Virus record (IMG/VR): IMGVR_UViG_2713896897_000002
DNA: 11,722 nt
Reading direction: 5' to 3' (one strand)
Source of the DNA: a virus
Lineage: Duplodnaviria; Heunggongvirae; Uroviricota; Caudoviricetes
Under the pieces are notes generated by a model that ran no database searches, was not told where the DNA came from, and saw nothing but the letters and a program-made list of their open reading frames with translations. The translations under genes and the position numbers were made by a program. Below are positions 1,738 to 11,722 of this stretch, piece after piece; position 1 is the first letter of the stretch, and the number at the start of each line of letters is the position of its first letter.

Positions 1738-1881
1738 CATCTGAATTTCACAGCGTATCGCAGCGCGTAACAATCCCGAGTCTTTCAGAAAGCTGAGCCT
1801 GAGAACTGCCGTATAGGTGAGGACCTCTCGGGGACGGCTTTTCTGTGCGAACAGGCTCAACTTTCTAAAGGAAATACCGAC

Positions 1882-2478
1882 ATGAACAAATCATTAACCG
1901 TTCTTCCTTCTGGCGAATACCCGACCATGAGCAGTCTTGAGATGGTGGATTACATTAATGCTGATCGGAAATCCAAAGCGGAGGCGGAGGGGCTTGCGTT
2001 CCCCTGTAAGAAATATCGCAAACTCGAACACCGCAGTTTCATGAAGAAAGTACCCAAGGTCCTCGGGGATGCAGCTGCAAAATTTTTTGCAACTGATACC
2101 TATATCAACGGAACAGGTGGTGTTGTGGAGAGGGATATTTGCAATTTTCCCAAGCGTGAAGCTTGCCTCATGGCAATGAGCTACAGCTATGAGCTTCAGG
2201 CGCAGGTGTATGACCACATGACTGAGCTTGAGGGTGGGAAGGAGATTAACCTTCTCGATTTCTCTGGCCTGACCGATATGGCAATCAGCGAAATGCAAAA
2301 CCGTGTCGCGGCTGCTGAGAAGTTCTCATTTGAAATGCACGGTCAAGCAGGTAGCGCTCTCATGACTCGTCGGAAGAAAGAGAAGAAGGCCATTAAAAAG
2401 GCTGAGCAGCTTGTGAAGGATCTTATTCAGTTCAAGCTATGTGACATGGGGGACTTCCCTGATGGTAAACCAGCATGA
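1882..2478 (+). CDS. rha: Rha-family phage regulatory protein (putative); accessory gene between lysis cassette and cos
   Basis: 198-aa ORF with AAAGGA upstream of ATG 1882. The N-terminal half (MSSLEMVDYIN...HRSFMKKVPKVL...YINGTGGVVERDICNFPKREACLMAMSY) fits the Rha pattern as I recall it. Position (after Rz, before the terminase small subunit) and size match the rha/orf201 genes of phi80 and P22. The C-terminal half is unrecognised. Assignment is from memory only. Confidence 0.55.
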   Translation: MNKSLTVLPSGEYPTMSSLEMVDYINADRKSKAEAEGLAFPCKKYRKLEHRSFMKKVPKVLGDAAAKFFATDTYINGTGGVVERDICNFPKREACLMAMSYSYELQAQVYDHMTELEGGKEINLLDFSGLTDMAISEMQNRVAAAEKFSFEMHGQAGSALMTRRKKEKKAIKKAEQLVKDLIQFKLCDMGDFPDGKPA

Positions 2479-2678: not shown

Positions 2679-2912
2679 CAGTCTGAGAGCCACTTTCACA
2701 ACGGCTCTCCATTACAAAGCCCATCTACTGGTGGGCTTGATAATGGCTTATACCCTACACGGGATAACTTAACTGATATCCCTTTTAACGGATAAAGGTA
2801 TTCAGGCCTGACACATCATGCGCTGTATCGTCGCTGTATTTCCGCATTAACCATGACCGTAGCCCGACGGGGAACTCCTCTGCGCGAGCATGCAGGATGT
2901 TGATTCATTGCT

Positions 2913-2930
2913 GTGCGACCGTGGTCGCAC
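2913..2930. repeat. Perfect 8-bp inverted repeat with 2-bp spacer (GTGCGACC gt GGTCGCAC)
   Basis: Read directly from the sequence; lies about 85 bp upstream of cosN in the non-coding cos-proximal region. Confidence 0.6.
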
Positions 2931-2987
2931 GACGCTGGTCTGTAAGATATTGAATTTATTGAGAATGAACCAGAGCGCCTGCGGGTC

Positions 2988-3011
2988 CTTTCCGGCGATC
3001 CGGCAGGCTAC
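2988..3011. other. cosQ-like element (packaging termination signal) just upstream of cosN
   Basis: GGGTCCTTTCCGGCGATCCGGCAGGCTACG closely matches the recalled lambda right-end sequence GGGTCCTTTCCGGTGATCCGACAGGTTACG that immediately precedes the cohesive end. Confidence 0.7.
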
Positions 3012-3012
3012 G

Positions 3013-3024
3013 GGGCGGCGACCT
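3013..3024. other. cos: cosN: 12-nt cohesive-end sequence GGGCGGCGACCT (terminase nicking site; virion DNA ends)
   Basis: Exact lambda cohesive-end 12-mer, embedded in GGGGCGGCGACCTCGCGGTTTTTCACTATTTATGAAAATTTT, which closely matches the recalled lambda left-end sequence. Confidence 0.85.
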
Positions 3025-3199
3025 CGCGGTTTTTCACTATTTATGAAAATTTTTCAGGGAAAATCGTGTCGGTACTTCTCGAATATAACTTTTTGTTTTT
3101 TTTAATATTGCTTTCATAAAGGTCCGACATGAAAGTGTCCGAAAATGCCTTTTTCTGGCGTTTTCATGTCGGGCCTTGTATTTGATAATGGGGTGTTTT
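3025..3199. promoter_or_regulatory. cosB-like terminase small-subunit binding region with dyad repeats (diverged from lambda R sites)
   Basis: Lies between cosN and the Nu1 start. Contains GGTCCGACATGAAA (3121-3134) and its near-perfect inverted copy TTTCATGTCGGGCC (3163-3176), a third GTCCGA copy at 3137-3142, an overlapping small dyad CTTTCAT/ATGAAAG (3112-3135) and A/T tracts. It does not match lambda R-site sequence as I recall it. Confidence 0.5.
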
Positions 3200-3748
3200 A
3201 TGAAGGTTAATAAAAAGAGGCTTGCCGAAATTTTTAACGTGGACCCGCGGACGATTGAACGCTGGCAGTCTCAGGGGCTCCCTTGCGTCTCCAAAGGCAG
3301 TAAGGGCATTGAATCTGTATTTGATACTGCCATGGCAATTCAGTGGTATGCGCAGAGGGAAACTGATATCGAAAACGAAAAGCTCCGCAAAGAACTGGAC
3401 GATTTGCGTGCGGCAGCGGAGTCAGATTTACAACCCGGCACCATTGACTATGAACGCTACCGGCTCACAAAAGCGCAGGCAGATGCGCAGGAACTGAAAA
3501 ATGCCCGTGAAGACGGAGTGGTGCTGGAAACTGAACTGTTTACCTTCATTCTGCAACGTGTGGCACAGGAGATTTCGGGGATACTTGTGCGTGTGCCGTT
3601 GACATTACAGCGTAAATATCCGGACATTTCACCATCACACCTTGATGTGGTGAAAACTGAAATCGCGAAAGCCTCCAATGTTGCAGCTAAGGCCGGTGAA
3701 AACGTGGGCGGGTGGATCGATGATTTCAGACGCACAGAAGGCAGCTAA
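3200..3748 (+). CDS. nu1: Terminase small subunit (gpNu1-like)
   Basis: [28 protein letters not shown]... aligns along its whole length with recalled lambda Nu1 (MEVNKKQLADIFGASIRTIQNWQEQGMP...). Winged-HTH N-terminus. ATG at 3200 is preferred over the upstream TTG at 3176. Confidence 0.9.
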
Positions 3749-5648
3749 TGCAGCCGGTGCGATAGCTACAGGGCTTTTATCTCTCATTATTCCTGTTCCA
3801 CTGACGACAGTTCAGTGGGCCAATAAACATTATTACCTTCCTAAAGAGTCGTCTTATACCCCGGGGCGGTGGGAAACACTGCCGTTTCAGGTTGGCATCA
3901 TGAACTGTATGGGCAACGATCTGATTCGCACTGTTAACCTGATTAAATCTGCCCGTGTTGGTTATACAAAGATGTTGCTGGGAGTGGAGGCTTATTTTAT
4001 TGAGCATAAATCACGCAACAGCCTTCTTTTTCAGCCCACGGACTCAGCCGCTGAAGATTTTATGAAATCTCATGTTGAGCCAACGATAAGGGATGTTCCT
4101 GCATTGCTGGAGCTGGCTCCATGGTTCGGAAGAAAACACCGCGATAATACGCTCACCCTGAAGCGTTTTTCCTCCGGTGTGGGGTTCTGGTGTCTGGGTG
4201 GTGCGGCAGCAAAAAACTACCGTGAAAAATCCGTGGATGTGGTCTGTTATGACGAGCTTTCCTCGTTCGAACCGGATGTTGAAAAAGAGGGGTCGCCAAC
4301 CCTGCTGGGGGATAAACGTATTGAGGGCTCTGTATGGCCAAAATCCATTCGCGGCTCGACGCCTAAAATCAAAGGCTCCTGCCAGATCGAAAAAGCCGCT
4401 AACGAGTCGGCACATTTCATGCGTTTTTATGTGCCCTGTCCGCACTGTGGGGAGGAGCAGTATCTGAAATTTGGCGATGATGCCTCGCCTTTCGGTCTTA
4501 AGTGGGAGAAGAATAAGCCAGAAAGTGTTTTCTACCTTTGTGAGCATCATGGCTGTGTGATCCATCAGTCTGAGCTTGACCAGAGTAACGGGCGGTGGAT
4601 CTGTGAAAACACGGGCATGTGGACCCGTGACGGCCTGATGTTTTTCAGCGCCCGGGGTGATGAAATTCCGCCGCCGCGCTCCATCACTTTCCATATCTGG
4701 ACGGCGTACAGTCCGTTCACCACTTGGGTACAGATTGTCTATGACTGGCTGGATGCACTGAAAGATCCCAACGGCCTGAAAACCTTTGTGAACACCACGC
4801 TGGGCGAGACCTACGAAGAGGCCGTGGGCGAAAAACTCGATCACCAGGTACTGATGGATAAGGTTGTGCGTTACACGGCGGCGGTGCCTGCCCGGGTGGT
4901 TTATCTGACGGCGGGCATTGACTCGCAGCGAAACCGTTTTGAGATGTATGTCTGGGGATGGGCTCCGGGAGAGGAAGCCTTTCTGGTGGATAAAATCGTC
5001 ATTATGGGGCGTCCCGATGAGGAAGAGACGCTGTTACGTGTGGACGCGGCGATCAACAAAAAATACCGCCATGCAGACGGAACCGAAATGACTATTTCCC
5101 GTGTCTGCTGGGACATCGGGGGGATCGATGGCGAAATCGTTTATCAGAGGTCAAAAAAACACGGTGTTTTCCGGGTGCTGCCGATAAAAGGCGCATCTGT
5201 CTATGGCAAGCCGGTGATCACCATGCCAAAAACCCGCAATCAGCGGGGCGTGTATCTGTGTGAAGTGGGGACGGACACCGCAAAAGAAATTCTCTATGCC
5301 CGTATGAAAGCCGATCCCACGCCTGTGGATGAAGCCACGTCGTATGCCATCCGTTTTCCTGATGATCCGGAGATTTTTTCGCAGACAGAGGCGCAGCAAC
5401 TGGTCGCGGAAGAGCTTGTGGAGAAGTGGGAAAAAGGAAACAAGATGCGTCTGCTGTGGGATAAAAAGCGGCGTAACGAAGCGCTGGACTGCCTGGTGTA
5501 TGCCTACGCGGCATTACGTGTGTCCGTGCAACGCTGGCAGCTTGATCTGGTTGTACTGGCAAAATCCCGGGAAGAAGAGACGACCCGGCCAACCCTTAAA
5601 GAACTGGCAGCGAAGCTGTCCGGAGGAGTGAATGGTTACAGTCGCTGA
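3720..5648 (+). CDS. A: Terminase large subunit (gpA-like; ATPase/endonuclease)
   Basis: Strong collinear match to recalled lambda gpA ([25 protein letters not shown]...[22 protein letters not shown]...). About 642 aa. ATG at 3720 (MISDAQ...) overlaps the Nu1 3' end by 29 nt, as in lambda. The extension to 3678 is unlikely. Confidence 0.9.
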
Positions 5649-5838
5649 ACTGCAGGCGCTGCGTCAGGCGCGCCTTGATTTATTAACCGGTAAACGGGTG
5701 GTGTCGGTCCAGAAAGATGGTCGCAGAATTGAATATACGGCGGCTTCTCTGGATGAGCTTAACCGGGCGATCAATGATGCGGAGTCGGTACTGGGGACAA
5801 CCCGGCGTCGCCGTCGTCCGCTGGGAGTGAGGTTATGA
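5632..5838 (+). CDS. W: Head-tail joining / head completion protein (gpW-like)
   Basis: The 68-aa product [40 protein letters not shown]... matches recalled lambda gpW (…[22 protein letters not shown]…). It overlaps the A 3' end and is coupled to the portal gene by an ATGA overlap. Confidence 0.85.
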   Translation: MVTVAELQALRQARLDLLTGKRVVSVQKDGRRIEYTAASLDELNRAINDAESVLGTTRRRRRPLGVRL

Positions 5839-7427
5839 AACGAACGCCTGTCCTGATTGATGTGAACGGCGTTCCGCTTCGTGAGAGTCTCAGCTACAAC
5901 GGGGGCGGTGCAGGATTTGGCGGGCAAATGGCGGAGTGGTTGCCACCGGCGCAGAGTGCCGATGCGGCCCTGCTTCCCGCGTTGCGTCTGGGGAATGCCC
6001 GGGCGGATGATCTGGTGCGCAATAACGGGATAGCGGCCAATGCGGTGGCACTGCATAAGGATCACATTGTCGGGCATATGTTTCTGATTAGCTACCGTCC
6101 GAACTGGCGCTGGCTGGGGATGCGGGAGACCGCAGCAAAAAGCTTTGTCGATGAGGTGGAGGCGGCCTGGTCGGAATACGCCGAAGGGATGTTTGGCGAG
6201 ATCGACGTGGAAGGAAAACGCACCTTCACGGAATTTATCCGTGAAGGTGTGGGCGTTCATGCGTTTAACGGCGAAATCTTTGTGCAGCCGGTCTGGGATA
6301 CGGAAACCACGCAGTTATTCCGTACGCATTTTAAAGCCGTGAGTCCGAAACGGGTGGACACGCCTGGACACGGTATGGGGAACCGTTTTCTGCGGGCCGG
6401 TGTGGAGGTCGATCGATATGGCCGTGCCGTCGCGTACCATATCTGTGAGGATGATTTTCCGTTCTCTGGTAGTGGACGATGGGAACGGATCCCGCGTGAA
6501 CTTCCCACCGGGCGTCCGGCCATGCTGCATATTTTCGAGCCGGTGGAGGACGGGCAGACCCGTGGGGCTAATCAGTTTTACAGCGTCATGGAACGGCTGA
6601 AGATGCTCGATTCCCTGCAGGCAACACAGCTTCAGTCGGCCATAGTGAAGGCGATGTATGCAGCGACGATTGAAAGTGAACTTGATACCGAAAAGGCCTT
6701 TGAATATATCGCCGGCGCGCCACAGGAGCAGAAGGATAATCCGCTTATTAATATTCTGGAGAAGTTCTCCAGCTGGTATGACACGAATAACGTGACACTG
6801 GGCGGTGTCAAAATTCCGCACCTTTTCCCTGGTGATGATCTGAAACTACAGACAGCGCAGGATTCAGACAATGGATTTTCTGCGCTTGAACAGGCGCTGC
6901 TGCGGTATATCGCCGCCGGTCTTGGCGTTTCCTACGAACAGTTGTCCCGTGATTACTCGAAGGTCAGTTACTCAAGTGCCCGCGCCTCCGCCAATGAGTC
7001 GTGGCGCTATTTTATGGGGCGGCGAAAATTTATTGCGGCCCGGCTGGCCACGCAGATGTTTTCCTGCTGGCTGGAAGAGGCACTTCTTCGGGGGATTATT
7101 CGTCCGCCACGGGCACGTTTTGATTTTTATCAGGCGCGATCAGCCTGGTCACGGGCAGAGTGGATTGGTGCCGGAAGAATGGCCATTGACGGGCTCAAGG
7201 AAGTCCAGGAATCAGTGATGCGCATTGAGGCCGGACTGAGCACGTATGAGAAAGAGCTGGCGCTAATGGGCGAGGATTATCAGGACATTTTCCGCCAGCA
7301 GGTCAGGGAATCTGCAGAGCGGCAAAAAGCCGGACTCTCACGTCCGGTGTGGATAGCGCAGGCGTATCAGCAGCAGATAGCGGAGAGTCGCAGGCCGGAA
7401 GAGGAGACAACACCACGTGAGACGTAA
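5835..7427 (+). CDS. B: Portal protein (gpB-like)
   Basis: 530 aa; position and length match lambda gpB (533 aa); ATGA overlap with W. Confidence 0.85.
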   Translation: MKRTPVLIDVNGVPLRESLSYNGGGAGFGGQMAEWLPPAQSADAALLPALRLGNARADDLVRNNGIAANAVALHKDHIVGHMFLISYRPNWRWLGMRETAAKSFVDEVEAAWSEYAEGMFGEIDVEGKRTFTEFIREGVGVHAFNGEIFVQPVWDTETTQLFRTHFKAVSPKRVDTPGHGMGNRFLRAGVEVDRYGRAVAYHICEDDFPFSGSGRWERIPRELPTGRPAMLHIFEPVEDGQTRGANQFYSVMERLKMLDSLQATQLQSAIVKAMYAATIESELDTEKAFEYIAGAPQEQKDNPLINILEKFSSWYDTNNVTLGGVKIPHLFPGDDLKLQTAQDSDNGFSALEQALLRYIAAGLGVSYEQLSRDYSKVSYSSARASANESWRYFMGRRKFIAARLATQMFSCWLEEALLRGIIRPPRARFDFYQARSAWSRAEWIGAGRMAIDGLKEVQESVMRIEAGLSTYEKELALMGEDYQDIFRQQVRESAERQKAGLSRPVWIAQAYQQQIAESRRPEEETTPRET

Positions 7428-8922
7428 TCTTTCACACATTATTGCCGCAGCATTCAATGAACCGCTGCTTCTGGAGCCCGCCTATGCGCGGGTTTTCTTT
7501 TGCGCGCTCGGGCGCGAGATGGGGGCAGCAAGTCTTTCGGTACCACAACAGCAGGTACAGTTTGATGCTCCCGGAATGCTGGCTGAAACGGACGAGTACA
7601 TGGCCGGAGGTAAACGACCGGCCCGTGTTTACAGGGTGGTGAACGGTATTGCTGTACTGCCGGTGACCGGCACGCTGGTGCACCGGCTGGGTGGTATGCG
7701 GCCATTTTCCGGAATGACAGGCTATGACGGTATTGTCGCCTGTCTTCAGCAGGCAATGGCGGATAGCCAGGTGCGGGGCGTACTGCTGGACATTGACAGT
7801 CCGGGCGGGCAGGCCGCCGGCGCGTTTGACTGCGCTGACATGATTTACCGCCTCCGTCAGCAGAAGCCGGTCTGGGCACTGTGCAATGACACGGCCTGTT
7901 CTGCAGCCATGCTGCTGGCGTCGGCTTGCTCCCGACGACTGGTTACCCAGACATCCCGTATCGGCTCCATTGGCGTGATGATGAGCCATGTCAGCTATGC
8001 CGGTCATCTGGCGCAGGTCGGTGTGGATATCACGCTGATTTACTCAGGGGCGCACAAGGTGGATGGCAATCAGTTTGAAGCGTTGCCGGCAGAGGTTCGC
8101 CAGGACATGCAGCAGCGGATTGATGCGGCGCGCCGGATGTTTGCCGAAAAAGTGGCGATGTTTACCGGTCTGTCTGTTGATGCAGTCACGGGAACAGAGG
8201 CCGCCGTTTTTGAAGGTCAGTCTGGCATTGAGGCCGGGCTGGCGGATGAATTAATCAATGCGTCGGATGCCATCAGTGTGATGGCCACGGCGCTGAACAG
8301 TAATGTCAGAGGAGGCACTATGCCGCAATTAACTGCAACGGAAGCCGCCGCGCAGGAGAACCAGCGAGTGATGGGGATCCTGACATGCCAGGAAGCGAAA
8401 GGACGTGAACAGCTTGCCACGATGCTGGCAGGACAACAGGGCATGAGCGTTGAACAGGCCCGGGCGATTCTGGCCGCGGCGGCACCGCAGCAGCCGGTGG
8501 CATCCACGCAGAGTGAAGCCGATCGCATTATGGCGTGTGAAGAAGCGAACGGTCGTAAACAACTGGCGGCAACGCTGGCGGCGATGCCGGAGATGACGGT
8601 GGAAAAAGCCCGCCCGATCCTGGCTGCTTTACCGCAGGCGGATGCCGGACCATCACTCCGTGATCAGATCATGGCACTGGATGAGGCAAAAGGGGCTGAG
8701 GCGCAGGCTGAACAGCTGGCTGCCTGCCCGGGAATGACTGTGGAGAGCGCCCGGGCTGTGCTGGCTGCGGGATCAGGTAAGGCAGAACCGGTCTCTGCAT
8801 CCACAACCGCCATGTTTGAACATTTCATGGCGAACCATTCACCGGCAGCGGTACAGGGTGGCGTGCCACAGACGTCAGCAGACGGTGATGCGGACGTAAA
8901 AATGCTCATGGCCATGCCATGA
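7417..8922 (+). CDS. C: Head maturation protease / scaffold fusion (gpC-like, S49/SppA-type serine protease)
   Basis: The N-terminus RNLSHIIAAAFNEPLLLEPAYARVFFCAL matches recalled lambda gpC (RNLPHIASMAFNEPLMLEPAYARVFFCAL). GSIGVMMSH is the candidate catalytic-serine region. GTG start at 7417 follows GAGGAG (7401-7406) and overlaps the portal 3' end. Confidence 0.85.
   Translation: MRRNLSHIIAAAFNEPLLLEPAYARVFFCALGREMGAASLSVPQQQVQFDAPGMLAETDEYMAGGKRPARVYRVVNGIAVLPVTGTLVHRLGGMRPFSGMTGYDGIVACLQQAMADSQVRGVLLDIDSPGGQAAGAFDCADMIYRLRQQKPVWALCNDTACSAAMLLASACSRRLVTQTSRIGSIGVMMSHVSYAGHLAQVGVDITLIYSGAHKVDGNQFEALPAEVRQDMQQRIDAARRMFAEKVAMFTGLSVDAVTGTEAAVFEGQSGIEAGLADELINASDAISVMATALNSNVRGGTMPQLTATEAAAQENQRVMGILTCQEAKGREQLATMLAGQQGMSVEQARAILAAAAPQQPVASTQSEADRIMACEEANGRKQLAATLAAMPEMTVEKARPILAALPQADAGPSLRDQIMALDEAKGAEAQAEQLAACPGMTVESARAVLAAGSGKAEPVSASTTAMFEHFMANHSPAAVQGGVPQTSADGDADVKMLMAMP
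8320..8922 (+). CDS. nu3: Nu3-like scaffolding protein from an in-frame internal start within gpC
   Basis: Strong Shine-Dalgarno AGAGGAGG (8308-8315) lies 4 nt before in-frame ATG 8320 (…GGTMPQLTA…). The product is about 200 aa and corresponds in position to the lambda Nu3 start as I recall it (…GGRMTKE…). Confidence 0.5.
   Translation: MPQLTATEAAAQENQRVMGILTCQEAKGREQLATMLAGQQGMSVEQARAILAAAAPQQPVASTQSEADRIMACEEANGRKQLAATLAAMPEMTVEKARPILAALPQADAGPSLRDQIMALDEAKGAEAQAEQLAACPGMTVESARAVLAAGSGKAEPVSASTTAMFEHFMANHSPAAVQGGVPQTSADGDADVKMLMAMP
8359..8775 (+). repeat. Three tandem degenerate coding repeats (about 47-52 aa each) in the C/Nu3 scaffold domain
   Basis: Repeat units begin RVMGILTCQEAKGREQLATMLAGQQGMSVEQARAILAAA, RIMACEEANGRKQLAATLAAMPEMTVEKARPILAAL and QIMALDEAKGAEAQAEQLAACPGMTVESARAVLAAG, with their ATG codons at 8371, 8530 and 8671. 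Confidence 0.7.
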
Positions 8923-8958
8923 AGTCAGTGCTGACCATCAACAGGAGGTTTTTACAAT

Positions 8959-9306
8959 ATGGTGACGAAAACCATCACTGAACAGCGTGCGGAAGTACGT
9001 ATTTTTGCCGGTAATGATCCGGCTCATACCGCCACAGGCAGCAGCGGGATTTCCTCGCCAACACCGGCACTGACGCCCCTGATGCTGGATGAAGCCACCG
9101 GGAAACTGGTGGTCTGGGACGGACAGAAAGCCGGTAGTGCGGTTGGCATACTGGTACTGCCGCTTGAAGGCACAGAGACGGCGCTGACGTATTACAAGTC
9201 GGGAACCTTTGCGACGGAGGCAATCCACTGGCCTGAAAGTGTGGATGAACACAAAAAGGCCAACGCCTTTGCCGGCAGTGCCCTGAGTCACGCGGCGCTG
9301 CCGTAA
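8959..9306 (+). CDS. D: Head decoration protein (gpD-like)
   Basis: The 115-aa product contains NDPAHTATG…LTPLMLDEATGKLVVWDG…AVGILV…YYKSGTF…FAGSA, matching recalled lambda gpD (SDPAHTATAPGG…MTPLMLDTSSRKLVAWDG…). AGGAGG (8942-8947) precedes ATG 8959. Confidence 0.85.
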   Translation: MVTKTITEQRAEVRIFAGNDPAHTATGSSGISSPTPALTPLMLDEATGKLVVWDGQKAGSAVGILVLPLEGTETALTYYKSGTFATEAIHWPESVDEHKKANAFAGSALSHAALP

Positions 9307-9314
9307 CACGTTAT

Positions 9315-9334
9315 CAGGCCACCGCGGTGGCCTG
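9315..9334. repeat. Perfect 20-bp palindrome CAGGCCACCGCGGTGGCCTG (stable RNA hairpin) in the D-E intergenic spacer
   Basis: The sequence equals its own reverse complement; it sits 9 nt after the D stop and 30 nt before the E start; no following T-tract. Confidence 0.65.
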
Positions 9335-9363
9335 ACTGATTTCTGAATGAAAGGAACTGATTT

Positions 9364-10392
9364 ATGGGATTGTTTACGACCCGCCAGTTACTCGGTTATA
9401 CCGAACAAAAAGTTAAATTTCGTGCGCTGTTTCTGGAGCTGTTTTTCCGCCGTACAGTGAATTTCCATACCGAAGAGGTGATGCTGGACAAAATTACCGG
9501 AAAAACGCCGGTGGCGGCCTATGTCTCCCCGGTTGTTGAAGGAAAAGTGCTGCGTCATCGTGGTGGTGAAACCCGCGTGTTGCGTCCGGGCTACGTCAAG
9601 CCGAAACACGAATTTAATTACCAGCAGGCGGTTGAGCGCCTTCCTGGTGAAGATCCATCTCAACTGAATGATCCGGCTTACCGCCGTCTGCGTATCATTA
9701 CCGATAACCTCAAACAGGAAGAGCACGCGATTGTCCAGGTGGAAGAAATGCAGGCGGTAAATGCTGTGTTGTATGGCAAATACACCATGGAAGGAGACCA
9801 GTTCGAGAAAATTGAGGTCGATTTTGGCAGGTCGACGAAGAATAACATCACTCAGGGTAGTGGTAAGGAGTGGTCAAAACAGGATCGTGACACGTTCGAT
9901 CCTACACATGATATTGACCTCTACTGCGACCAGGCCAGCGGTCTTGTGAATATTGCCATTATGGACGGTACCGTCTGGCGTCTTCTGAATGGTTTTAAGC
10001 TGTTCCGCGAAAAACTGGATACCCGTCGCGGTTCAAATTCTCAACTCGAAACGGCAGTGAAAGATCTGGGCGCAGTGGTGTCCTTCAAGGGGTATTACGG
10101 CGATCTGGCTATTGTTGTGGCGAAAACGTCTTATATAGCAGAAGACGGTATCGAAAAACGTTATCTTCCAGATGGCATGCTGGTTCTGGGGAATACTGCT
10201 GCAGATGGGATCCGTTGTTACGGTGCCATTCAGGATGCTCAGGCGTTGTCCGAAGGTGTGGTGGCCTCTTCCCGTTATCCGAAACACTGGCTGACGGTAG
10301 GGGATCCCGCCCGTGAATTTACCATGACGCAGTCCGCGCCGCTGATGGTGTTGCCGGACCCGGATGAGTTTGTGGTGGTACAGGTGAAATAA
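9364..10392 (+). CDS. E: Major capsid protein (gpE-like)
   Basis: The 342-aa product is collinear with recalled lambda gpE (…PGYVKPKHE…AIVQVEEMQAV…KYTM…NNITQ…EWSK…KEKLDTRRGSNS…LETAVKDLG…YPK…TGDPAREFTM…QSAPLM…DPDEFV…). Confidence 0.9.
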   Translation: MGLFTTRQLLGYTEQKVKFRALFLELFFRRTVNFHTEEVMLDKITGKTPVAAYVSPVVEGKVLRHRGGETRVLRPGYVKPKHEFNYQQAVERLPGEDPSQLNDPAYRRLRIITDNLKQEEHAIVQVEEMQAVNAVLYGKYTMEGDQFEKIEVDFGRSTKNNITQGSGKEWSKQDRDTFDPTHDIDLYCDQASGLVNIAIMDGTVWRLLNGFKLFREKLDTRRGSNSQLETAVKDLGAVVSFKGYYGDLAIVVAKTSYIAEDGIEKRYLPDGMLVLGNTAADGIRCYGAIQDAQALSEGVVASSRYPKHWLTVGDPAREFTMTQSAPLMVLPDPDEFVVVQVK

Positions 10393-10400
10393 TCCGTGAG

Positions 10401-10430
10401 CGGGGGCGAAATGCCTCCGTGTCTTTTTTC
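10401..10430 (+). terminator. Terminator-like hairpin with T-tract after the major capsid gene (candidate attenuator)
   Basis: CGGGGGC (10401-10407), GAAAT loop, GCCTCCG (10413-10419, one G-U wobble), then GTGTCTTTTTTC. It lies between the E stop and the FI start. Confidence 0.4.
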
Positions 10431-10443
10431 ACAGGGGGCTGGT

Positions 10444-10818
10444 ATGGCAACGAAAGAGCAAAATCTGAAACGGCTTGATGAACTGGCCCTGATTCTGGGG
10501 CGTGAGCCGGATATATCCGGGAGTGCCGCAGAGATAGCGCAGCGGGTGGCAGAATGGGAAGAGGAAATGCAGTCATCCGGTGATGATGTACAGGTTATGA
10601 ATATGGATATCCGGGAGCGGGAAACCGCGGCTCATGATGTTCGTGAGGAAACATCCGGCGCGTTAACGCGCATCAGAGTTCTGACCTGCCTCCATCTCTG
10701 TGGCGTTGATGGTGAAACGGGGGAATCCGTTGAGCTTGCGGATGTTGGTCGGGTGATTCTGATTATGTCCTCAGATGCAAAAACACACGTTGATGGCGGA
10801 ATGGCTGTTTATGCGTGA
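10444..10818 (+). CDS. FI: DNA-packaging accessory protein (gpFI-like)
   Basis: The acidic product MATKEQNLKRLDELALILGREPDISGSAAEIAQRVAEWEEEMQ resembles the recalled lambda FI N-terminus in character and position. ATG at 10444 follows AGGGGG; the ORF-track start at 10396 is probably an over-extension. The stop overlaps the FII start. Confidence 0.7.
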   Translation: MATKEQNLKRLDELALILGREPDISGSAAEIAQRVAEWEEEMQSSGDDVQVMNMDIRERETAAHDVREETSGALTRIRVLTCLHLCGVDGETGESVELADVGRVILIMSSDAKTHVDGGMAVYA

Positions 10819-11164
10819 TTTTCAGAATGCCTTTGATGCCGCCCTTGCCGGGGTGGACAGTACGATTGTTGAAGTGATGGGCATCAGTGCGCAGTTCACC
10901 TCCGGTGCACAGCGTGGCGGCGAGGTTCATGGCGTTTTTGACGATCCGGAGTCGCTGGGTTTTGCCAGTAGTGGGATCCGTATTGAAGGAAGTAATCCGT
11001 CATTATTTGTGCTTACGGATACGGTTTGTGCTGTACGGCGTGGTGACACGCTGACCATTAACGGCGAGATGTTCTGGGTGGACCGTGTTTCTCCGGATGA
11101 CGGAGGGAGTTGTTATCTCTGGCTCAACCGGGGGCAACCACCTGCCGCCAGCCGTCGTCGCTGA
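10811..11164 (+). CDS. FII: Head-tail connector protein (gpFII-like)
   Basis: From ATG 10811 the 117-aa product MRDFQNAFDAALAGVDSTIVEVMG…GVFDDPES…GDTLTINGEMFWVDRVSPDDGGSCYLWLNRGQPPAASRRR matches recalled lambda FII (MADFDNLFDAAIARADETIRG…WVDRVSPDDGGSCHLWLGRGVPPAVNRRR) and its length. Confidence 0.85.
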   Translation: MRDFQNAFDAALAGVDSTIVEVMGISAQFTSGAQRGGEVHGVFDDPESLGFASSGIRIEGSNPSLFVLTDTVCAVRRGDTLTINGEMFWVDRVSPDDGGSCYLWLNRGQPPAASRRR

Positions 11165-11175
11165 CAGGGGGATGT

Positions 11176-11709
11176 ATGACCATCAGAGGTCTTGAGCAGG
11201 CCGTTGAAAACCTCAGCCGTATCAGCAGAACGGCGGTGCCCGGTGCCTCCGCAATGGCCATTAACCGCGTGGCCACAACGGCAATGAATCAGTCGGCGTC
11301 ACAGGTTGCCCGTGAGACAAAGGTGCGGCGAAAACTGGTAAAGGAAAGGGCCAGACTGAAAAAGGCCACGGTCAAAAATCCGCACGTAAAAATCATTGTT
11401 AACCGCGGTGATTTACCTGTCATCAAACTGGGGATACGGATCACCGGAAGTCCTCCCAACAGTACGCTACGGGCCGGTCAGCATCGTTATCAGCGGGCAT
11501 TTATCCAGCGATTAAAAAATGGTCGCTGGCATGTCATGCAGCGAGTGGCCGGGAAAAACCGTTACCCCATTGATGTGGTGAAAATCCCGCTGGCGGCGCC
11601 GCTGACCACGGCGTTTAAACAGAATATTGAACAGATACGGCGTGAACGTTTGCCGAAAGAGCTGGGCTATGCGCTGCAGCATCAACTGAGAATGGTAATA
11701 AAGCGATGA
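11176..11709 (+). CDS. Z: Tail assembly / tail completion protein (gpZ-like)
   Basis: From ATG 11176 (GGGGGA upstream) the product MTIRGLEQAVENLSRISRTAVPGASAMAINRVA… and its C-terminus WHVMQRVAGKNRYPIDVVKIPLAAPLTTAFKQNIEQIRRERLPKELGYALQHQLRMVIKR are near-identical to recalled lambda gpZ. Confidence 0.85.
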   Translation: MTIRGLEQAVENLSRISRTAVPGASAMAINRVATTAMNQSASQVARETKVRRKLVKERARLKKATVKNPHVKIIVNRGDLPVIKLGIRITGSPPNSTLRAGQHRYQRAFIQRLKNGRWHVMQRVAGKNRYPIDVVKIPLAAPLTTAFKQNIEQIRRERLPKELGYALQHQLRMVIKR

Positions 11710-11722
11710 AACATACTGAACT
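11706..11722 (+). CDS. U: Tail protein gpU-like, first codons only (truncated by window end)
   Basis: ATGAAACATACTGAACT encodes MKHTE, the same opening as recalled lambda gpU (MKHTELRAAV…). The ATG overlaps the Z stop (ATGA). Confidence 0.5.

Follow-up and report, generated by a model that had tools for sequence, protein, structure and literature searches.

The cosB site of phage 21, with its R3-I1-R2-R1 layout, has been sequenced, annotated and genetically dissected since the 1980s-1990s, and both this reading of the site and the specificity difference between lambda and 21 are textbook knowledge. The role of R1 is less well defined than those of R3 and R2, even in lambda. Lambda and 21 each package their own DNA >1000-fold better than their counterpart's, and their specificity is set by bp 56 and bp 59 of R3 together with residues 20 and 24 of the terminase small subunit, TerS (PMC9026076, PMC4669245). 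Helper-packaging genetics of the two phages assign cosB specificity to TerS (PMC4669245). The I2 segment, which precedes cosB, is essential and statically bent in lambda (PMC4856287). Another cos phage whose TerS belongs to this family, N15, has a simple cosB that consists of a single R3 box, equally far from cosN and without I1, R2 and R1 (PMC4669245).

Here we describe the corresponding locus in a stretch of phage DNA of 11,722 nucleotides, referred to below as the window. When positions 2950-3760 were compared with phage records by megablast, phage 21 (M81255, X02501, OL657228) was matched at 98.1-98.5% identity. All of the window from 3013 onward aligns collinearly with the initial 8756 bp of phage 21 at ~98.5% identity (98-99% over 2982-11722), and in this alignment a window position equals 3012 + bp. 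The genes for the S21 holin, the SAR endolysin and Rz lie 5' of cos, while gene 1, gene 2, W, the portal gene and the head genes follow on the 3' side. Such a placement of late genes on both sides of cos is the prophage (or circular/concatemer) order of a 21-like phage.

A preliminary description of this DNA had pointed to an inverted repeat just upstream of the small-subunit gene as a set of candidate TerS recognition elements. The repeat is present. The 14-mer GGTCCGACATGAAA at 3121-3134 (+) is accompanied by the inverted copy TTTCATGTCGGGCC, identical at 13 of 14 positions, at 3162-3175, one base to the left of the interval 3163-3176 given before. Its surroundings also agree with the description, since the repeat interval is located 24-89 bp 5' of the small-subunit ATG (3200) and 87-163 bp 3' of the cohesive-end sequence GGGCGGCGACCT (3013-3024) and therefore falls inside cosB. 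In the comparison with the phage 21 R sites that had been proposed as a check, the two arms coincide with the annotated R2 and R1 boxes. Records OL657228 and M81255 list each R box as a site where gpNu1/gp1 binds to initiate packaging and describe R2 as 'in opposite orientation to R3 and R1'; M81255 itself calls the boxes 'putative'. Judging from this correspondence, the inverted repeat is with high confidence the R2/R1 pair of a tripartite cosB (R3-I1-R2-R1) in a phage-21-type lambdoid prophage, and evidence contradicting this assignment was not found. The interval delimited in the preliminary description thus captured R2 and R1 and missed R3 and I1, which lie upstream of it. The features of the locus are collected in the following table.

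Table 1. Features of the cos region and terminase genes of the window, with their counterparts in phage 21 records and the columns invariant among 41 distinct 21-class cos sequences.
Feature	Position	Strand	Counterpart or basis	Invariant columns
cosQ, GGGTCCT, packaging-termination subsite	2983-2989	+	maps to OL657228 cosQ 42902-42908, 30 bp before left end	
cosN, 12-nt cohesive-end sequence GGGCGGCGACCT	3013-3024	+	aligns to OL657228 bp 1-12; same sequence as lambda bp 1-12	
I2 segment (about bp 18-50), with A/T tracts, separating cosN from cosB	3030-3061			
R3 box of cosB, core CGTGTCGG at 3065-3072	3062-3077	+	'cosB R3' of OL657228 (bp 50-65), M81255	12/16
I1, IHF site of cosB (predicted)	3086-3098	-	'cosB I1' of OL657228 (bp 74-86)	9/13
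I1-R2 spacer				8/20
R2 box, orientation opposite to that of R3 and R1; minus-strand core CATGTCGG at 3124-3131; left arm of the repeat	3119-3134	-	'cosB R2' of OL657228 (bp 107-122), M81255	14/16
R2-R1 spacer, variable, partial centred dyad symmetry (GAAAA...TTTTC), holds the 'third' GTCCGA	3135-3161			10/27
R1 box, core CATGTCGG at 3165-3172; right arm of the repeat	3162-3178	+	'cosB R1' of OL657228 (bp 150-166), M81255	12/17
R1-ATG spacer				6/21
Gene 1, terminase small subunit (TerS, Nu1 homologue), 182 aa	3200-3748	+	Pfam Phage_Nu1 3.6e-82	
Gene 2, terminase large subunit (TerL, gpA homologue)	3720-5648	+	start by homology to OL657228 CDS 709-2637	

In R3, I1, R2 and R1 the window is base-for-base the same as phage 21; the cos segments as a whole are ~98% identical, cosQ and cosN are identical, and the head-gene operons are collinear. 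The differences are few. Substitutions at 3112, 3114 and 3116 in the I1-R2 spacer give CTTTCAT where phage 21 has CATCCGT, and one G/T substitution and a 1-nt deletion are found in 3193-3199, between the ribosome binding site and the gene 1 ATG. The gene 1 product, gp1, differs from its phage 21 counterpart by A30V and A179T, V30 being the common allele among relatives. None of the three spacer substitutions, the 1-nt deletion or A30V touches a box core. The open frame of gene 2 reaches back to 3678, and its product is matched by both Pfam GpA_ATPase and Pfam GpA_nuclease.

The region between Rz and cos is where the window and phage 21 carry different moron genes. Phage 21 has bor and a TonB-like gene there, whereas the window has two other ORFs (1882-2678), an accessory-gene (moron) replacement. 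One of them (1882-2478, 198 aa) matches phrog_26415 and weakly the Ant anti-repressor families and is thus Ant-like, and the other (2475-2678, 67 aa) hits phrog_4439, a family of unknown function; Pfam gave no match for either. A further ORF of 71 aa at 2890-3105 (+) spans cosQ, cosN and R3, and its equivalents in related records are annotated as 'hypothetical protein'. With no Pfam or PHROGs match and a reading frame that is severed in mature phage DNA, it is probably not a real gene.

Three copies of the 8-bp core CRTGTCGG, at 3065 (+), 3124 (-) and 3165 (+), lie within 108 bp and in > < > orientation in the stretch from cosN to gene 1. Over the whole window there are four copies against 0.82 expected. 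The fourth, an exact CATGTCGG at 1877-1884 (-), lies ~1.1 kb 5' of cosN and overlaps the ATG of the ORF 1882-2478; with ~0.8 copies per window expected by chance, it is probably fortuitous. Between R3 and R2, the I1 sequence AAACAAAAAGTTA at 3086-3098 (-) fits the consensus WATCAANNNNTTR with one mismatch and is the only such match (<=1 mismatch) in 3013-3200; it is a predicted IHF site.

Because the elements are small, the inverted repeat could in principle have arisen by chance and be functionless, and their size is the sole point in favour of this reading. With at most one mismatch, the 14-mer GGTCCGACATGAAA occurs exactly twice in the 11.7-kb window, whereas shuffles yield an expectation of 0.01 and none of 200 dinucleotide-shuffled sequences gave two copies. 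The arms also fall on annotated phage 21 sites, and across 41 diverged sequences the boxes are nearly invariant while the spacers vary. We scored this conservation over 41 distinct 21-class cos sequences by counting invariant columns (see the table). All boxes together have 38 invariant columns of 49 compared with 24 of 68 in the three spacers (Fisher p = 6e-6), so that the repeats are conserved among relatives sharing this Nu1 type, the point on which the preliminary description had allowed itself to be refuted. The cosN-R3 spacer (3025-3061) has 23 of 37 columns invariant. Chance is left with a practically negligible probability and is ruled out by this conservation together with the co-segregation of boxes and TerS domains reported below.

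Two further elements had been proposed within the same interval. A second GTCCGA, counted in the preliminary description as a third copy of the motif, is found at 3137-3142, exactly as given there. Among the 41 variants, however, the hexamer reads GTCCGA in only 21, with GCCTAA in 11, GCCCGA in five, GCCTGA in two and ACCCGA in two, and given this variability in 21-class relatives we reject it as an extra TerS half-site. The short dyad CTTTCAT/ATGAAAG likewise exists, with arms at 3111-3117 and 3129-3135 (its start had been placed one base too far right, at 3112). Its left arm is specific to the window, as CTTTCAT occurs in one of the 41 variants, namely the window itself, and phage 21 has CATCCGT; the dyad is therefore rejected as a functional element.

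With respect to lambda, the layout is nearly the same and the box sequence is not. The R cores start at bp 53, 112 and 153 in the window and at bp 53, 114 and 155 in lambda, with the same orientation (R3>, <R2, R1>), and the TerS ATG is at bp 188 and bp 191, respectively. Both have identical cosQ and cosN and an IHF-like site between R3 and R2. The earlier view that the geometry differs from lambda does not hold, therefore, as the spacings agree within 1-2 bp. In contrast, the box core is C(A/G)TGTCGG in the window and CGTTTCC in lambda. The R3 cores, CGTGTCGG in the window and CGTTTCCG in lambda, differ at two positions only: the window has the 21-specific G at both bp 56 and bp 59, where lambda has T and C.

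These two bases have their counterpart in the protein. The gp1 of the window shares 99% identity with phage 21 gp1 and 52% with lambda Nu1. In its recognition helix, residues 17-24 are RTIERWQS, with E20 and S24 in the 21 states, while the lambda helix reads RTIQNWQE. Over residues 1-54 it is identical at 53 of 54 positions to the deposited structure of the 21 DNA-binding domain (PDB 7LWR; the lambda domain is PDB 1J9I). It is because of these differences in box core, R3 and recognition helix that lambda and 21 show their published >1000-fold mutual packaging exclusion (PMC4669245). The proposal of a specificity distinct from lambda is borne out by the different box core and the matching change in the winged helix-turn-helix, although it is one that has been characterised already (PMC4669245). 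Because the boxes are base-for-base identical to those of phage 21, where helper-packaging genetics established both properties (PMC4669245), the site in the window would be expected to bind gp1 and to support 21-specific packaging.

The relationship between box type and DNA-binding domain was surveyed in about 120 loci encoding relatives of gp1, taken from genome and viral collections and E. coli genomes. Cores were counted within 200 bp upstream, and loci were classified by the N-terminal 55 residues of TerS. All loci with a 21-type N-terminal domain have two or three 21-type cores upstream and no lambda core CGTTTCC. Conversely, none of the loci with a lambda-type domain has a 21-type core, and nearly all have one to three lambda cores; the most divergent lambda-type loci, L026 and L027, have zero for both cores. 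No locus mixes the 21-type and lambda box types. The same rule applies to natural chimeras that combine a 21-type DNA-binding domain with a lambda-type C-terminus, which include the O157:H7 EDL933 prophage, IdasGreatGrand and loci L112-L125. As these chimeras keep 21 boxes, the boxes track the DNA-binding domain and not the rest of the terminase. Further TerS classes that differ in recognition helix come with distinct box sequences, the R3> <R2 R1> arrangement being kept; relative to the start codon these boxes sit at about -130, -75 and -33. For instance, the box is TCAGATCC(G/T)TTCT in the RTITAWQS class and CGTGTCG in the L106 group.

This co-segregation bears on whether the boxes are instead bound by another protein, for example a factor of the host or one that regulates transcription of the late or head operon. 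In favour of such a protein is one weak sigma-70-like match over R1 (3161-3189, 9/12), which is not above the chance number. Against it, the box type switches with the N-terminal DNA-binding domain of TerS independently of both the TerS C-terminus and the cosN variant, and the helper packaging of lambda and 21 cited above puts cosB specificity on TerS (PMC4669245). We consider binding by another protein extremely unlikely, and TerS is retained as the protein that would recognise the boxes.

The survey also brought up several observations on individual loci. Chimeric TerS beside 21-type R boxes (L005, L006, L008, L112-L125) is common in EHEC prophages; in these loci the DNA-binding domain (residues 1-55) has 89-93% identity to the 21 type, while the C-terminal region (residues 101-175) is lambda-type with 99% identity. 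They mirror the laboratory lambda-21 hybrids of Feiss (PMC9026076, PMC4669245). Both the hybrids whose TerS is chimeric (hy51 type) and the natural equivalents in O157:H7 EDL933 prophages and phage IdasGreatGrand resemble the window in their 21-type R boxes and DNA-binding domain, but TerS in its C-terminal half and TerL are lambda-type in them, whereas TerS and TerL of the window are wholly 21-type. Variant cohesive ends (GGGCGGCAGCGG, GGGCGGAAGGCG, GGGTCATAGCAC in place of GGGCGGCGACCT) accompany a 21-type cosB in L077-L080, L083, L084, L120, L007 and L082. The last of these sequences, GGGTCATAGCAC, is so divergent that the cosN may be nonfunctional or of a different type.

A single-box derivative of cosB was found only in L101 (IMGVR_UViG_2529293040_000025), which belongs to a class unrelated to the window. 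Here, ~80 bp before TerS begins at 1201, cosB has only one R box left, at which the R3 left flank passes into the right part of R1 (…AAATCAGATCC/TTTCTGGTTCCC…, the slash marking the junction). The segment is ~100 bp shorter than in sister loci (compare L092), and the adjoining TerS frame is full-length (182 aa). The arrangement looks like the product of the R3 x R1 unequal crossover that was proposed for the simple cosB of N15 (PMC4669245); the window has the full tripartite cosB. In addition, lambda Nu1 and cos (99-100% identical) were found in assemblies of unrelated organisms, namely Kitasatospora, Paenibacillus, Pseudomonas (contigs of about 48.4 kb), Shewanella, Oceanobacillus and Bradyrhizobium (L015-L019, L023-L025, L034, L040, L041, L043), almost certainly owing to contamination with lambda DNA.

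The symmetry of the repeat is not confined to the two boxes. In a repeat search the dyad extended to 27-nt arms (3119-3145 and 3151-3177) that are 81% complementary. This 59-nt dyad (3119-3177) could be modelled as an RNA stem-loop 5' of gene 1 or a DNA cruciform, instead of the boxes or besides them; as RNA it would be an element of the late transcript that affects translation, stability or termination. Indeed, RNA from 3112-3185 is predicted to fold into one hairpin of 26 pairs (-35.5 kcal/mol, z = -7.9), and strong folds (z = -5.2 to -8.5) are likewise predicted for the corresponding segments of lambda, the RTITAWQS class and the EDL933 type. Centred symmetry of the spacer beyond the boxes, seen in several lineages (p = 0.002-0.06), points the same way. 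However, among 19 distinct 21-class variants none of the 26 pairs is altered in both partners, the covariation score of 0.062 falls short of the mean for shuffles (0.087), and the covariation term of RNAalifold is 0.03. Eight of the 19 variants disrupt the spacer pairs 25:51 and 26:50, and spacer symmetry is absent in the lambda-like loci of Citrobacter, Kluyvera and Klebsiella and in L106 (p = 0.47-0.95). The hairpin model also leaves R3, a third and unpaired copy of the box, unexplained. A terminator scan gave only a weak 8-pair alternative with the tail CCTTGTATTT, and no good intrinsic terminator. Most of the predicted fold arises because two protein sites lie in inverted orientation. In the absence of covariation in the 19 variants and of a proper terminator, a hairpin or structured RNA was rejected as the primary explanation; we rate such a structure as very improbable and keep it as an unlikely addition to the protein sites, the arms being assigned to R2 and R1.

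As for the spacer itself, its centred symmetry in the window amounts to seven Watson-Crick pairs versus 4.5 expected (p = 0.022). Symmetry above that of shuffles was observed for all four 21-class subtypes (p = 0.002-0.04), for lambda proper (p = 0.01-0.09) and for part of the third class. The symmetry, often of the form GAAAA…TTTTC, is kept across several TerS specificity classes, in the spacers of L004, L006 and L092 as in the window, although their sequences are unrelated. It reaches significance in some lineages and is lacking in others, and may or may not be under universal selection. It may represent neutral extension of the palindrome, or a bend or structure element, and in neither case is the R-box assignment challenged. 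That the 26-pair dyad at 3119-3177, which recurs with spacers of unrelated sequence in the 21, lambda and RTITAWQS classes, is selected in its own right seems improbable. If it were, it might act as an RNA stem-loop before gene 1, as a terminator-like element that insulates the head operon in the prophage, or as a symmetric A4/T4 bend element for assembly of TerS on R2 and R1. Otherwise it would be a neutral by-product, with the palindrome extended between inverted protein sites.

With the arms read as R2 and R1, published work on phage 21 and lambda (PMC9026076, PMC4669245, PMC4856287) suggests how the site would be used, and gp1 binding, IHF bending and packaging in the window are inferred from it. 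The winged helix-turn-helix of gp1, encoded directly downstream, would read the box core C(A/G)TGTCGG. IHF would bend the DNA at I1, and the bend would bring R3 and the inverted R2 face to face with their major grooves toward the dimer of gp1 DNA-binding domains docking across them, while R1 may provide a third gp1 site. Bound to cosB, gp1 would anchor gp2 at an exact, fixed distance on cosN. Accurate nicking of cosN by gp2 would then follow, with the complex staying on the cosB end and packaging starting from there.

The comparative survey adds confirmation in the form of box and DNA-binding domain co-segregation, natural 21/lambda chimeric TerS and a natural single-box cosB. These results support existing models and do not change them. 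For the window, the value of the finding is one of annotation, as it marks the window as a prophage of the phage 21 type in which cosQ-cosN-cosB and terminase appear intact. The terminase expected to package its DNA is therefore the 21-specific and not the lambda-specific one.
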